From an uncultured Gammaproteobacteria bacterium (GTDB taxonomy: Bacteria > Pseudomonadota > Gammaproteobacteria > Ga0077536): 64,000 nt of DNA. Positions 2,364-8,085 of the stretch are shown here, piece by piece. The DNA lies in NCBI GenBank assembly GCA_964642505.1, contig CAZXQY010000003.1, positions 324 to 64,323 on the forward strand, written 5' to 3'. Made by a program: the position numbers and the translations under genes. Within the stretch, counting starts at the first letter, position 1, and each line of letters opens with the position of its first letter. The notes beneath the pieces were generated by a model. The model searched no databases and had not been told where the DNA came from. It saw nothing but the letters and a program-made list of their open reading frames with translations.

Positions 2364-3188
2364 TTACTTTATATTTTGCCTTAGCCTCCTGATAACCGGT
2401 CCCGTATCCGGAAAATAACCATGCCATGTTCTAAAAGATTCCGCCGCTTGCTCTACTAACATACCAATACCATCTACAGCTAAGGCGGCGCCCATCTCTA
2501 CAGCCCAGTTAACAAAAGATGTTCCACCCGGTCGATAAGCTAAATCATAGCAGATTGTTTTCGGGCCGATCGCATTGCGATCAACCAAGGGAATTTCATC
2601 AGAAAGGCTCAACGAAGTGCAGTTCAATATTAAATCTAGCGGTTTTTGCGGCCTCTCACCCCACTCAAGGATTGTAATATTTCTTGACGCATCTAACTCT
2701 GCAAAGCGTAACGATTTCTCAAAGGTTCTATTCGTGATCGTAAGTGACCATGGCCTCCTATCCAAAATAGGTCCTAATATTCCCCTTGCAGCACCACCGG
2801 CACCGACAATTAGGATTTTTTTGTCCTTCAAAGAAAAACCAATGTTTTGTTCAATATCTTTAATGATGCCAATGCCATCGGTGTTGTCAGCAAAGGTTTT
2901 CCCTTCCGAAAACCATAGAGTGTTAGCCGACTCGGCAGAGATTGCTCTATCAGAAGGCTCGTCTGCCAAATGGAAAGCCTCCCCTTTCAACGGAACAGTT
3001 GCGTTGATCCCAACCACATCTTCGGTTTTCGCCCTGGCTAAGAATTCTGCTAGATCACCACTGCAGATTCTCTTTTTTTGATAGTCTATAGCTAATCGAA
3101 ACTGGGAAGCGAACTCCAGGTGAATAAAGGGTGATTTACTATGATCTATCGGATCCCCAACCACATAAAATTTCTTAACTATAGTCAT
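2364..3188 (-). CDS. aroE: Shikimate dehydrogenase AroE
   Basis: GDPIDHSKSPFIH, NATVPLK, DNTDGIG and a VGAGGAARG Rossmann motif. The ATG at 3188 gives an MTIVKKFYVVGDP N-terminus like other AroE proteins. The longer ORF from a TTG at 3215 is less likely. Confidence 0.85.
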   Translation of the reverse strand: MTIVKKFYVVGDPIDHSKSPFIHLEFASQFRLAIDYQKKRICSGDLAEFLARAKTEDVVGINATVPLKGEAFHLADEPSDRAISAESANTLWFSEGKTFADNTDGIGIIKDIEQNIGFSLKDKKILIVGAGGAARGILGPILDRRPWSLTITNRTFEKSLRFAELDASRNITILEWGERPQKPLDLILNCTSLSLSDEIPLVDRNAIGPKTICYDLAYRPGGTSFVNWAVEMGAALAVDGIGMLVEQAAESFRTWHGYFPDTGPVIRRLRQNIK

Positions 3189-3235
3189 GGGGATGAAATT
3201 GTAACCCTCGAACAAGCTGAGACAGAAAACTAACC

Positions 3236-4282
3236 TTATCCTTTGAGTAGACCACCTTGGATAACATACGTTTTAAACCCTCGCTCACCCAATAGAAAAG
3301 CTGCGGCCGAACTTTTCCTTTCTGTATCACAATAAACTACATACGAAATTTTAGGATCCAACGAATCAACTTCCAGGCGTAACATAAACAGCGGGATATT
3401 AAGGCTACCCTCGATTCCGTTGTTCCGAAATTCCTCCTCTAATCTGACATCCAGGAATTTCGCTCCTCCTTCCACTAACTCTAAAGCCTTTTCCATAGAA
3501 ACCTTACTTAACATAGGCTCTTTTAATAATTCTTCGAAATCTTCGGATGCTAGTCGCATGAGTGAGCCGTTACTTTCCATCACTACGGAAGCATTTCTAG
3601 CAGAACCCGACACCAACGCTTCCTCCCCGAAAGCCATCCCGACACCTAACGTCGCAAGAGTTATATCGCTGCCGCCGCCTTTAGACTCTCTAGTAACTTT
3701 AGCCGAACCCTTTCTAATGATGTAATAGATATCGCCTTCATCCCCTTGATTAACTACAAGCTGTCTAGCACTAACAGAAATTTCTTCCATTTTCATGAAC
3801 ATAGCTTGAATATTAGCCGCTGGAACATTGAAAAAGGCCTTTTCTCTAAGCATTAAAGTCATCCAATCCTGATCAACCTCGTCTTCCGCTGCTTGCCCAA
3901 TTTCACTCACCTCTATACCGCTTACTTGATCCCATGTGGTCAAAATATCCAGCAGATCGCTATCTATTCGGGTTATCTTACATTCGTTATCAGCTTTCGC
4001 GGTATGTTGCCTCGGCTGGAAATTAGCCAAAGGCTTGCGCGCTTTTTCGGTTCCAGATCTTAAAAGAGTCTTTTTTCCGTCGTCACCTACTAGACTGATA
4101 TCACCCTCTAGTAGATATATGGTTTTGCGGTCCACATCACCAGATTGAAAAATCTGCCTTCCAGTAGCAATCTTCTCAACCGTGGCTTTTCCAGCTAATT
4201 CTTGAAAGTTCTCTGCATTAAGTGGATGCGGAAGTGAGAGCTCCCTGAGTACCTTTATATCGATTCTATCGCCGTCATTCAT
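3236..4282 (-). CDS. Protein with tandem cyclic-nucleotide-binding domains and a C-terminal rhodanese (sulfurtransferase) domain
   Basis: Two CAP-family cNMP folds; the second is well conserved (VVNQGDEGDIYYIIRKGSA...FGEEAL...RNASV). The C-terminal rhodanese has a catalytic-loop cysteine (VVYCDTERKS). Confidence 0.7.
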   Translation of the reverse strand: MNDGDRIDIKVLRELSLPHPLNAENFQELAGKATVEKIATGRQIFQSGDVDRKTIYLLEGDISLVGDDGKKTLLRSGTEKARKPLANFQPRQHTAKADNECKITRIDSDLLDILTTWDQVSGIEVSEIGQAAEDEVDQDWMTLMLREKAFFNVPAANIQAMFMKMEEISVSARQLVVNQGDEGDIYYIIRKGSAKVTRESKGGGSDITLATLGVGMAFGEEALVSGSARNASVVMESNGSLMRLASEDFEELLKEPMLSKVSMEKALELVEGGAKFLDVRLEEEFRNNGIEGSLNIPLFMLRLEVDSLDPKISYVVYCDTERKSSAAAFLLGERGFKTYVIQGGLLKG

Positions 4283-4386
4283 AAAAGCATCTTACATCTT
4301 TCGGGGTCCCGAACCTATTACTTTCTCCTTGAAACCAACGATTCTCGATCCGGCTTTAGTATTGACCCAACACACAGATAATTATT

Positions 4387-4411
4387 CTGGAGGCAGCACT
4401 ACTGCCTCCAG
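4387..4411 (-). terminator. Perfect 10-bp stem / 5-nt loop hairpin immediately downstream of the amtB stop. It lacks a clear U-tract and may be a terminator or processing site.
   Basis: ctggaggcag-cacta-ctgcctccag, read directly from the sequence. Confidence 0.45.
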
Positions 4412-4426
4412 ATAATCGCGAATCCC

Positions 4427-5704
4427 CTACAGGATATAACCTCTTTCATTATGTTCAGCTATATCCAGGCCTTTAGACTCATCCTCATCGGAAGCTCGTA
4501 AACCATTTATAGCCTCTACTACTTTTAAAATGACGAAAGTAACAACTGCACACCAAACTATAGTAGCGAATACTCCTATCACTTGAACCTTAAGTTGCGA
4601 GCCCATAGCCATACCATCCCGATAGCCGGCACCACCGTATTCCGCTGCAACAAAAACTCCTGCCAGAATACAACCGAGCATGCCGCCGACACCATGTACA
4701 GGAAAGACATCTAAAGAATCATCTATTTTTAAGGTTCTCTTGATGGATTGTGTAGCAAAATAACAGACGACACCAGCAGCTAATCCTATAATCAGACCTC
4801 CCACCGGACCCACATATCCAGACGCTGGAGTAATAGTACCTAGACCAGCAACCATTCCAGTCACGATGCCTAATACGCTTGGTTTTCCATATCTGAGCCA
4901 CTCTATAGTCATCCATGCCAGAGAAGCTGCAGCCGCAGAAATGTGTGTAACCAGCATCGCCATACCGGCGTCATTATTTGCCGCTACAGCGCTGCCAGCA
5001 TTAAAGCCGAACCACCCAACCCAAAGCATTGATGCGCCCATAACAGTTATTGTTAAGTTGTGAGGCGGCATTGGAGTATCTGGAAACCCTTTTCGATTTC
5101 CCAAAACCATCGCTGCTACTATCGCCGCCACGCCCGCATTAATATGTACGACAGTTCCGCCAGCAAAATCAAGGAAGTTCTTATCCCCTAACCAGCCTCC
5201 GCCCCAAACCCAGTGGCATACGGGCGCATACACCAAAATTAACCAGAACACGCTAAACAGTAGTACCGAAGAAAATTTCATCCTCTCAGCAAACCCACCT
5301 ATGATAAGGGCTGGTGTGATAATCGCAAAGGTCATCTGAAACATCACGAAAACCGTCTCAGGAATTGAGCCGCTCATGCTGTCTTTAGCCACATCAGTGA
5401 GAAATAAATTACCCGACCCTATAAAAGCGTTGTATTTTCCCCCATCGCCAAACGCCAATCCATAACCCACTGCCATCCACACAATTGACATCAAGCAAGC
5501 GAGAGCAAAACATTGCATTAACACCGACAACACATTTTTACTGCGAACCAGTCCGCTATAAAAAAGCGCCAAACCCGGCAAAGTCATGAACAATACTAAA
5601 GCTGTCGACGTCAACAACCAAGCACTGTCACCCGTATCGATGGTATCCCCAAAAGCCGATCCCGACGACAGAAATACAGTTAAACCAAGAATTAAACGAA
5701 ACAT
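4427..5704 (-). CDS. amtB: Ammonium transporter AmtB (with N-terminal signal peptide)
   Basis: Amt/MEP family signatures (DFAGGTVVHINAG, GxxxGNRKG). Start placed at MFRLILGLTVFLSSGSAFG (signal peptide). Directly downstream of glnK. Confidence 0.9.
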   Translation of the reverse strand: MFRLILGLTVFLSSGSAFGDTIDTGDSAWLLTSTALVLFMTLPGLALFYSGLVRSKNVLSVLMQCFALACLMSIVWMAVGYGLAFGDGGKYNAFIGSGNLFLTDVAKDSMSGSIPETVFVMFQMTFAIITPALIIGGFAERMKFSSVLLFSVFWLILVYAPVCHWVWGGGWLGDKNFLDFAGGTVVHINAGVAAIVAAMVLGNRKGFPDTPMPPHNLTITVMGASMLWVGWFGFNAGSAVAANNDAGMAMLVTHISAAAASLAWMTIEWLRYGKPSVLGIVTGMVAGLGTITPASGYVGPVGGLIIGLAAGVVCYFATQSIKRTLKIDDSLDVFPVHGVGGMLGCILAGVFVAAEYGGAGYRDGMAMGSQLKVQVIGVFATIVWCAVVTFVILKVVEAINGLRASDEDESKGLDIAEHNERGYIL

Positions 5705-5791
5705 TTCTATTCCCTCCCTAATAAAAAGAACGCCTTTGTACTCGTATAAAGACGTCCTCTCATACAAATATATTTTCGAACGATTTTTATG

Positions 5792-6214
<423 letters not shown>

Positions 6215-6334
6215 TTATAACAGCCGGCATTTTTGTTTATCCAGACAAAAAAATCCACCTTCCACCAGAGATCTCTATCCTTTCATAGAGACAGTTTACA
6301 AATGTCTATCAAACTATTCTTTTTAAACTAAATA

Positions 6335-7579
6335 TCATTTAGTAAATTCAGGATAAGCCTCTAATCCACAATCCGTAACATCCAACCCATCACTTTCTTC
6401 TTCTTCAGTTACACGAATGCCAATAGTCGACTTTATCGCAGTCCAAAGTATTAAGGAGGTAATGAAAACCCACCCGAATATTACTACGATACCCAATATC
6501 TGGGAGCCCATGCTAGCTTCGCTGTTGCTCAGACAAACGGCCAGCAATCCCCAAATTCCAGCAGTACCGTGAACCGATATCGCGCCTACGGGATCGTCGA
6601 TTTTTCTCTTATCTAAAAATAGAATAGACAAAACAACTAAAATACCACCTATCCCTCCTATTATCGTAGCCAAAAGCGGCGTGGGGGTTAACGGTTCTGC
6701 CGTAATAGAGACCAACCCGGCTAGGGCACCATTTAGAGCCATGGTTAAATCCGCCTTTTTGAACATAAATTGCGACGTAATCAACGCCAAAATGCAACCT
6801 CCCGCAGCAGCAGCGTTTGTATTTACAAAAATTAATGCGACAGCATTAGATTTTGCCACATCCGAAACAACTAGTTCCGACCCACCATTAAAACCGAACC
6901 ACCCAAACCAAAGCAGGAAGGTTCCTAATGTTGCGAGCGGCAAATTGGCTCCAGGAATTGCGTTGACCTGTCCGGCGGGTCCATATTTTCCTTTCCGAGC
7001 ACCCAGCAGCATGACGCCTGCCAAGGCCGCCGTCGCTCCGGCCATATGTACTACTCCCGAACCCGCAAAATCCAAGAAACCTTTTTCGTCAAGGAAACCT
7101 CCACCCCACTTCCAGTAGCCCTCGATCGGATAAATGAAACCAGCCATAAAAACCGCGAACAGTAGAAAAGACCATAATTTCATTCGCTCAGCTACTGCGC
7201 CCGAGACAATCGACATCGCTGCAGCCACAAATACCGCTTGGAAAAAGAAATCGGACAGATTCGAATAATAAATCTGACCTTCACTGGCAATCACAGCGGC
7301 TGCCTCATTGTCTGTACCACCTAAAGTAGAGGGAAGCCCTGGCACCAGGGAGTTTATCGCTTCGGGAGGGTACATTAAGGAATACCCGCATAGGAGATAC
7401 ATTGTACAAGCCACCGAATATAGTACGATGTTCTTTGTCAAGATTTCGGCGGTATTTTTAGATCGTACCAGGCCAGCTTCGAGCATTGCAAAGCCACAGG
7501 CCATCAACATCACAAATGCTCCCATAACCAAGAAATAAAAAGTATCGAGCGCATATTTTAACTCTACGACGGATTCCAC
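6335..7579 (-). CDS. Ammonium transporter (second copy, no obvious signal peptide)
   Basis: Amt family protein of 414 aa (DFAGSGVVHMAG, GARKGKYG), directly downstream of a second PII gene. Confidence 0.9.
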   Translation of the reverse strand: MESVVELKYALDTFYFLVMGAFVMLMACGFAMLEAGLVRSKNTAEILTKNIVLYSVACTMYLLCGYSLMYPPEAINSLVPGLPSTLGGTDNEAAAVIASEGQIYYSNLSDFFFQAVFVAAAMSIVSGAVAERMKLWSFLLFAVFMAGFIYPIEGYWKWGGGFLDEKGFLDFAGSGVVHMAGATAALAGVMLLGARKGKYGPAGQVNAIPGANLPLATLGTFLLWFGWFGFNGGSELVVSDVAKSNAVALIFVNTNAAAAGGCILALITSQFMFKKADLTMALNGALAGLVSITAEPLTPTPLLATIIGGIGGILVVLSILFLDKRKIDDPVGAISVHGTAGIWGLLAVCLSNSEASMGSQILGIVVIFGWVFITSLILWTAIKSTIGIRVTEEEESDGLDVTDCGLEAYPEFTK

Positions 7580-7618
7580 TTTTGATATCCTCCTAATATT
7601 CTTTGTTTTATATTCCAG

Positions 7619-7957
7619 TTAAAGCACGGCAGAGATCGCATCTCCTCTGCGGATCCTTAAGACTTCCAAAAACTTGCTTGCGGAAATTTTTCGGCCACCT
7701 ATTTCACCGGTCTCGCATGTTGCCTTGATAGCTTCGACCACGTTTGGAACCAAATCCTTATCAACTACCACTTCTACTTTCGTTTTCGGTAAAAAATCAA
7801 CTTGATAGTCAGAACCTCTATAGAGCTCAGTAAGTCCTTTCTGATATCCAAAACCTTTCATTTCTGGAACAGCAGGTCCCTTTACGCCTATCTGCGTGAG
7901 AGTTTCTATGAGATCATCTATTTTGAATGATTTGATAACCGCAGTTATGATTTTCAT
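7619..7957 (-). CDS. Divergent P-II (GlnB/GlnK-like) signal-transduction protein
   Basis: PII fold of 112 aa. The T-loop reads GFGYQKGLTELYRGSDY (Arg38 to Tyr, His42 to Leu) and the B-loop reads GEIGGRKISA instead of [10 protein letters not shown]. Confidence 0.8.
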   Translation of the reverse strand: MKIITAVIKSFKIDDLIETLTQIGVKGPAVPEMKGFGYQKGLTELYRGSDYQVDFLPKTKVEVVVDKDLVPNVVEAIKATCETGEIGGRKISASKFLEVLRIRRGDAISAVL

Positions 7958-8069
7958 CTACTTTCCTCTTTTTTAAACCGAAAATCTCATTCAACGTTCA
8001 CTAATCACCTCGCTTGAATCAAATTTTGCATTTTACAAATATTTAATCTGTATATATTCACTAACCCAA

Positions 8070-8085
8070 AGCACATGTCGTGCCA
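8070..8085 (-). promoter_or_regulatory. Candidate sigma-54 (-24/-12) promoter for the upstream glnK-like/amt operon
   Basis: The minus strand reads TGGCACG-ACAT-GTGCT, which is the consensus TGGCACG-N4-TTGCW with one mismatch. It lies about 110 nt upstream of the PII start codon. Confidence 0.45.

Follow-up and report, generated by a model that had tools for sequence, protein, structure and literature searches.

CRP-type transcription factors are thought to be almost the sole route by which cAMP acts in most bacteria (PMC11139211). Receptors of cyclic nucleotide monophosphates (cNMPs) that act outside transcription are few. The mycobacterial acetyltransferase Pat (Rv0998) and the Bdellovibrio EAL enzyme Bd1971 are cAMP-regulated enzymes with a fused cyclic-nucleotide-binding (CNB) domain, and tandem CNB modules are known from the kinases PKG and PKA. 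Pseudomonas aeruginosa CbpA (Endoh and Engel 2009, J Bacteriol 191:7193) is reported to be a cAMP receptor other than a transcription factor that pairs a degenerate with a functional CNB-type domain; the protein treated here may resemble it in this respect, and CbpA is not known to have a rhodanese domain. Here we analyze a gene of an uncultured Gammaproteobacteria bacterium that lies next to the ammonium transporter gene amtB in a 64,000-nucleotide (nt) stretch of DNA, hereafter the window (contig CAZXQY010000003.1, positions 324 to 64,323). The gene encodes two CNB domains, CNB-A and CNB-B, followed by a C-terminal rhodanese domain, and the most likely prediction for its product is a sulfurtransferase or sulfur carrier that forms a persulfide under cNMP control. 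We propose, with middling confidence, that it is a soluble signaling enzyme in which a cNMP bound at CNB-B would control sulfane-sulfur transfer by Cys318, and that its gene forms a unit of its own with the shikimate dehydrogenase gene aroE, insulated from the nitrogen operon upstream. The proposed logic is that of Pat and Bd1971. The protein differs from both in that its output domain is a rhodanese rather than a GNAT or EAL domain and that it carries an additional, degenerate CNB domain.

Searches of the whole protein against Pfam matched PF00027 in two stretches (E 2.3e-22) and PF00581 at residues 264-345 (E 2e-10). We also scanned the domains one by one. CNB-B scored 58.2 bits (E 8e-16), the rhodanese domain 45.1 bits (E 1.4e-11) and CNB-A 26.1 bits (E 8.3e-6), the last slightly below the Pfam gathering score of 27.5 bits for PF00027. 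An earlier note, written from the letters of this DNA, had read the protein as two CAP-type folds with a C-terminal single-domain rhodanese, and this architecture is borne out, with PF00027 found twice and PF00581 once. A structure model built from 68 sequences reached a predicted local distance difference test (pLDDT) score of 85 and a predicted template modeling (pTM) score of 0.55, and replaces a 14-sequence model with a pTM of 0.38. The closest relatives of known structure are the paired CNB regions of the PKG and PKA kinases, especially of Plasmodium PKG (PfPKG), for which the alignment spans CNB-C, itself degenerate, and CNB-D. At about 20% identity, however, our protein is bacterial, has 348 amino acids, lacks any kinase, pseudosubstrate or docking domain, and carries a fused rhodanese output instead.

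The putative ligand site lies in CNB-B, an eight-stranded beta-sandwich with flanking helices. Its phosphate-binding cassette, FGEEALVSGSARNAS, reads FGEEAL-x5-RNAS and is a complete match to the pattern F-G-E-x-A-L-x5-R-x-A-[ST]. In such cassettes the Glu contacts the ribose 2'-OH and the Arg the phosphate, and the nine-residue spacing from Glu to Arg matches that of PKA RI-alpha. We assessed conservation in an alignment of 68 diverse homologues reaching down to 38% identity. G219, E220, R229 and A231 of CNB-B are invariant in it, and on these grounds CNB-B is a predicted cAMP- or cGMP-binding site with a complete cassette. Each of the three domains is conserved throughout the family, with a mean column conservation in the same alignment of 0.68 for CNB-B, 0.65 for the rhodanese domain and 0.56 for CNB-A.

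CNB-A adopts the same fold. It aligned to CNB-B with an hhalign probability of 96.9% and to CNB-C of PfPKG, and was modeled with pLDDT values of about 90-95. The profile-profile alignment of the two domains is gapless over the cassette and equates R91 with R229, T94 with S232 and A81-R82 with G219-E220. CNB-A thus keeps P90-R91 and T94, and its site is degenerate because the ribose-binding Gly-Glu pair is missing, with A81-R82 in its place; the family consensus at this position is A-x-H-P-L-A-N-x-Q-P-R. The reading of the protein as a dual cNMP sensor is therefore weakened: a site is predicted for CNB-B, which has a full cassette, and is not supported for CNB-A. The cassette Arg that the earlier note singled out for a check of conservation is invariant in CNB-B and has an equivalent in CNB-A.

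Two stretches between the domains equal the catalytic residues in conservation. Between CNB-A and CNB-B runs a connector with the near-invariant motifs LTWDQ and DWMT, in which W140 is invariant and W117, Q119 and M141 are at least 90% conserved. These motifs flank an acidic loop that AlphaFold left unplaced (pLDDT <50 at residues 122-135), and the connector may serve for interaction or capping. The near-invariant hinge LLKEPML links CNB-B to the rhodanese domain almost without a linker; in the model, about eight residues separate the final helix of CNB-B from the initial one of the rhodanese domain.

The C-terminal domain has the alpha/beta fold of a rhodanese. In a gap-free alignment Cys318 falls on the catalytic Cys of PspE (VYCNAGRQS) and on that of the rhodanese domains of CoA-disulfide reductase (CoADR). 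It is invariant in 68 of 68 sequences and occupies the first position of a six-residue loop of the sulfurtransferase type. The claim that the Cys of YCDTERKS sits in the active-site loop is correct, and hidden Markov models detected both the first CNB region and the rhodanese domain around this Cys, so that the refuting outcome named in the earlier note did not arise. The family consensus of the loop, CDTGRRS, occurs in 33 of the 68 sequences. The window version, CDTERKS, carries the changes G321E and R323K, which it shares in the alignment only with a 99%-identical metagenome twin (P0001); the near-invariant loop Gly is retained in relatives at 76-82% identity. Compared with PspE, GlpE and TSTD1, our protein is fused to two CNB domains, is not periplasmic, and carries an Asp next to the Cys in its loop, CDT(G/E)R(R/K)S. 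No named rhodanese is orthologous to it, because the NCBIfam equivalog scores fall far below their cut-offs.

The surroundings of the gene were compared across three look-ups of relatives at 59-76% identity, four of close relatives and 80 metagenome loci found with a family alignment. We distinguish clade A, the window's own clade (>=50% identity), for which marine metagenomes supplied the close relatives (one on a TARA scaffold), from clade B (44-49% identity; loci L032-L087), which comes from soil, peat and freshwater and belongs to the Steroidobacteraceae by NCBI names. The backbone of clade A is constant: apaH-apaG-comM-ubiK, then at some distance the gene and aroE, followed by a convergent dctM-dctQ-rsmA-pdxA-surA-lptD. 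aroE lies directly downstream on the same strand in all 25 informative clade A loci, with spacers of mostly 20-70 nt, whereas 18 of 23 have, on the upstream side, an amt gene whose end is no more than 700 nt away (L019, L020, L021, L025 and L026 are without one). In clade B, amt is upstream in none of 40 informative loci and aroE downstream in none of 49. There a fadB-like gene for an enoyl-CoA hydratase/3-hydroxyacyl-CoA dehydrogenase stands upstream on the same strand (for example L056:8001-9050), and pilZ-holB-tmk-mltG-pabC-pabB-fabF converge on the gene from downstream. No partner gene was conserved across the clades examined. Given 18 of 23 and 0 of 40 loci for amt against 25 of 25 for aroE, the adjacency to amtB is most likely a lineage-specific, inherited gene order and the link to aroE is the tighter one, making aroE the probable co-transcribed partner of the gene.

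The gene lies downstream of amtB on the same strand, as the earlier note had it, with a spacer of exactly the length it gave. Its perfect hairpin without a U-tract is likewise exact. The core, CTGGAGGCAG-tagtg-CTGCCTCCAG, lies at 4387-4411, 15 nt past the amtB stop codon, and six further A-U or G-U pairs lengthen the stem to 16 pairs (about 4380-4417). The predicted stability is -23 to -25 kcal/mol (z -4.1); none of 200 shuffled sequences was as stable. The window holds a single instance of the pattern (0.00 expected), which for that reason is not a REP-like repeat (repetitive extragenic palindrome). The G+C-rich stem-loop of an intrinsic terminator is present and the U-tract is not (tail AAUAAUUAUCUG), and a scan with a terminator consensus did not call the hairpin. 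An Rfam search found no match in the 144-nt spacer and only four tRNAs in the whole window.

In an 82%-identical relative (L088), a hairpin follows the amtB stop codon at an equal offset. Relative to the window stem, three pairs have both partners replaced (G-C to A-U, A-U to G-C and G-C to A-U) and one has become G-U, and only the hairpin and the last ~48 nt of the two spacers align. In nearly all clade A loci with amtB upstream, the strongest hairpin lies 9-52 nt past the stop codon, the exception being L003/L004 with a weak one (-6.1 kcal/mol). Textbook intrinsic terminators with U-tracts, such as AAAAGGGCGCagauGCGCCCUUUUUUU, occupy the equivalent position in L013, L014, L016, L023, L029 and L030, while the hairpins of the two closest relatives (L088 and L002) have no U-tract either. 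Across clade A, 117 to 508 nt separate amtB from the gene. Because of the compensatory changes in L088 and the canonical terminators at the equivalent position, the window hairpin is probably the glnK-amtB terminator or a 3'-end structure whose U-tract has degenerated. With the Rho-independent terminators found after amtB it shares a G+C-rich stem near the stop codon, and it differs from them in its U-poor tail. If it is a terminator, the gene would be insulated from the nitrogen operon rather than coupled to it.

In the mechanism that we propose, a cyclic mononucleotide (cAMP or cGMP) would occupy CNB-B, and the hinge or lid motion typical of CNB domains would be transmitted to the rhodanese domain. 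This would shift the exposure, or the access of partners, of a persulfide-bearing Cys318 and so bring sulfane-sulfur transfer to an acceptor under second-messenger control. CNB-A and the LTWDQ...DWMT connector would act as a structural or regulatory scaffold or as an interaction surface, like the degenerate CNB domains of PfPKG. The transcription unit would consist of the gene and aroE, with glnK-amtB terminated at the hairpin.

Several points weigh against this proposal. The placement of the domains relative to one another is uncertain in the model at a pTM of 0.55, so that the coupling mechanism is something we infer; since this geometry is untrustworthy, we make no claim about occlusion of Cys318. 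The two loop changes, G321E and R323K, could weaken catalysis in the window orthologue. An Asn follows the cassette Arg of CNB-B, where PKA has Ala and PKG has Thr, which makes the identity of the ligand less certain. In the literature we found no ligand-binding or enzyme-activity measurement for any member of the family. As for a separate transcription unit, no T-tract follows the stem of the hairpin (tail AAUAAUUAUCUGUGUGUU), which would permit read-through, and we found no convincing sigma-54 or sigma-70 promoter for the gene in 4283-4386. With a short spacer, a poor U-tract and no recognizable promoter, some read-through from amtB is possible.

The alternative that fares best, and that we nevertheless consider unlikely, is that the rhodanese domain is a sensor: Cys318 would be reversibly persulfidated or oxidized, and the protein would act without catalysis, as an adaptor that combines the cNMP signal with sulfane-sulfur or redox state and works through protein-protein contacts. 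Pfam finds no other output domain, the LTWDQ and DWMT motifs combine strong conservation with poor modeling, as is typical of interaction surfaces, giant relatives attach the same module to coiled coils of ~1,000 residues, and the window lineage tolerates a Glu in place of the loop Gly. However, the sulfurtransferase consensus C-x-T-G-R-R-S is kept family-wide, the best sequence matches are the active sulfurtransferases PspE and GlpE, and no partner gene is conserved across clades.

It is quite unlikely that the gene is a functional tail of a nitrogen-regulated glnK-amtB operon, reached through a leaky hairpin and tying cNMP and sulfur signaling to ammonium uptake. The shared strand, the 144-nt distance, the U-tract missing in the window as in L088 and L002, the lack of a sigma-70-like promoter in the spacer and the amt gene upstream in most clade A loci all fit such a tail, as does a sigma-54-like element, TGGCACGACATGTGCT, at 8070-8085 on the minus strand. 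This element has one mismatch, lies ~110 nt 5' of the first glnK and, taken alone, is not above chance within the window. Against the tail stand a structured element retained by compensatory change, canonical terminators in several relatives, spacers of 200-500 nt in others, and long fused forms of the protein in unrelated contexts. Upstream, amtB is absent in the five clade A loci named above and in all 40 informative clade B loci, while the link to aroE holds in every informative clade A locus. With no family-wide linkage to amtB, and with hairpins or terminators intervening, the gene does not qualify as a member of the glnK-amtB operon. The partial read-through from the nitrogen operon that had been suggested is weakened: the hairpin stands where relatives have a conserved amtB terminator and the link to amtB is not general, although the poor U-tract may let some transcripts pass.

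More doubtful still is the idea that the CNB folds bind another ligand, be it a nucleoside, 2-oxoglutarate (as in NtcA) or cCMP or cUMP (as in Pycsar effectors). CNB folds with other ligands are known, and trypanosome PKA-R structures with inosine or guanosine are among the fold matches; the Asn after the cassette Arg is unusual, CNB-A has a conserved NxQPR motif, and in PADLOC the CNB domains of PycTIR matched weakly (E 4e-6 to 4e-5). CNB-B, however, holds all canonical cNMP-contacting residues at canonical spacing, and the PADLOC matches are confined to the CNB domain, in a core housekeeping context with no adjoining cyclase and no defense island. A Pycsar-type defense effector was rejected on the same matches (CNB region only, E 4e-6 or weaker) and the conserved housekeeping neighbors. 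A CRP/FNR regulator was rejected as well. The CNB effector domain is common to both (CRP E 2e-8), but a rhodanese takes the C-terminal position of the helix-turn-helix, which was not detected, Pfam gave only PF00027 and PF00581 at E<=1, and the NCBIfam scores for CRP, FtrB and NtcA all lie far below their cut-offs. Scarcely credible, finally, is a Cdc25/Acr2-like phosphatase or arsenate reductase, the phosphatase-like option of the earlier note, for which the rhodanese fold, its Cys and the acidic residue next to that Cys, as in Cdc25, would speak, since the loop has six residues rather than seven and aligns without gaps to PspE, position C+6 is Ser rather than Arg with no CX5R in the window or the family consensus, and Pfam and NCBIfam scans of the protein matched no phosphatase family.

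The description of the gene is corrected in four respects: it encodes one predicted functional ligand site rather than two and a putative sulfurtransferase rather than a phosphatase, it is paired with aroE and separated from amtB by a probable terminator, and its product is no CRP-type regulator, whatever the database names suggest. The features of the locus and of the protein are listed in Table 1.

Table 1. Coordinates of the gene, its encoded domains and its neighbors in the window
Feature	Position	Strand	Remarks
First glnK	7619-7957	-	
amt gene (first pair)	6335-7579	-	
Second glnK (P-II)	5792-6130	-	112 aa; in operon with amtB; PF00543, E 4e-34
amtB	4427-5704	-	425 aa; upstream neighbor on the same strand; PF00909, E 2.6e-124; stop TAG 4427-4429
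Spacer, amtB stop to gene start	4283-4426	-	144 nt
Hairpin	4380-4417	-	Perfect 10-bp G+C-rich core 4387-4411, 5-nt loop, A-U-extended
CNB-CNB-rhodanese gene	3236-4282	-	Complete, 348 aa plus stop; start ATG 4280-4282
CNB-A	3947-4249	-	Residues ~12-112; degenerate cNMP-binding fold
Inter-domain connector	3833-3946	-	Residues 113-150
CNB-B	3509-3832	-	Residues 151-258; canonical cNMP-binding domain, ends in hinge LLKEPML
CNB-B phosphate-binding cassette	3587-3631	-	Residues 218-232
Single-domain rhodanese	3239-3508	-	Residues 259-348
Rhodanese active-site loop	3311-3331	-	C318-D-T-E-R-K-S324; Cys318 codon 3329-3331
aroE (shikimate dehydrogenase)	2364-3188	-	274 aa; 47 nt downstream of the gene; Pfam match

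On the minus strand of 2364-8085 the order of transcription is glnK, amt, glnK, amtB, the CNB-CNB-rhodanese gene and aroE, which converges with dctQ/dctM. The two glnK-amt pairs stand in tandem (7619-7957/6335-7579 and 5792-6130/4427-5704) and encode Amt proteins that are ~30% identical; the duplicated layout also occurs in relatives L002, L005, L011, L012 and L030. In L003/L004:3113-6776, from a relative with a genome of ~5.9 megabases, an IS1595-family transposase gene and three small open reading frames (ORFs) lie between glnK and amtB and split the operon a short way upstream of the CNB-rhodanese gene. The starts in the ORF list were TTG codons too far upstream (amtB 4427-5767, glnK 5792-6178 and aroE 2364-3215). 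From the lengths of homologues and from ribosome-binding sites, the true starts are ATG 5704 for amtB, with GGGAGGGA 5' of it, ATG 6130 for glnK and ATG 3188 for aroE. No clear Shine-Dalgarno sequence was seen before the ATG of the CNB-CNB-rhodanese gene. Just 5' of that ATG, on the same strand, are a start-stop element (ATG-TAA, 4292-4297) and a three-codon mini-ORF (ATG CTT TTA TGA, 4279-4290) whose stop codon overlaps the start of the gene (ATGA). Both recur in the 82%-identical relative L088, there with other internal codons (ATG CCA GTA TGA), and are absent in L002.

The gene itself is unremarkable within its family, which is gammaproteobacterial, very large, strongly conserved and uncharacterized. 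A search of a 90%-clustered database returned 3,458 homologues at E<=1e-3. The best 120 are all 333-358 residues long, contain the same two Pfam families and carry generic names, either 'cyclic nucleotide-binding domain-containing protein' or 'CRP-like cAMP-binding protein'. At E<=1e-30 there were 1,229 clusters (50%-identity representatives), and another search, started with the protein of a soil locus, gave no fewer than 7,989 proteins (E<=1e-40), with Steroidobacteraceae as the NCBI-named top matches. A search of genome contigs with the single protein gave one distant partial match only, and no NCBIfam model reached its cut-off for the protein. In the literature we found no paper on the combination of CNB and rhodanese domains; papers on transposon sequencing in P. 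stutzeri (RB-TnSeq) and A. baumannii (Tn-seq) and on Thiohalobacter genomics were set aside, the two domains sitting in separate genes in each.

About 70 of the 150 best 50%-identity representatives are 1,000-1,800 residues long, aside from one eukaryote-like multi-CNB protein of 3,779 residues. In the giant forms (1,200-1,800 residues) the entire CNB-CNB-rhodanese module of 340 residues stands at the N-terminus and shares 43-47% identity with the window protein. This module is followed by ~1,000 residues with weak matches of the coiled-coil type and then by a C-terminal FGE-sulfatase domain (PF03781, E ~1e-61); examples are P0125, P0128, P0139 and P0155 (loci L007:4870-9792 and L094:10001-15271). 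Two of the giant forms lie in other housekeeping contexts unrelated to amtB or aroE. The family is an uncharacterized variant of the theme of CNB-regulated enzymes, and the most intriguing lead is that giant proteins with an FGE domain reuse its module. We tentatively suggest that the CNB-CNB-rhodanese module could be a widespread, unrecognized class of receptor that places persulfide trafficking under cAMP or cGMP in Gammaproteobacteria, either standing alone or heading giant FGE-sulfatase/EgtB-like coiled-coil proteins.

For annotation, the gene should be recorded as encoding a CNB-rhodanese protein and as paired with aroE, neither a member of the nitrogen operon nor a CRP-like regulator. 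If the module is such a class of receptor, cyclic-nucleotide signaling would be linked to sulfur chemistry, a connection without characterized precedent. If the wiring is functional, sulfur transfer or persulfide signaling would join the outputs of cyclic nucleotides in bacteria, and the module would also offer a way to approach the giant fusion proteins with an FGE domain.

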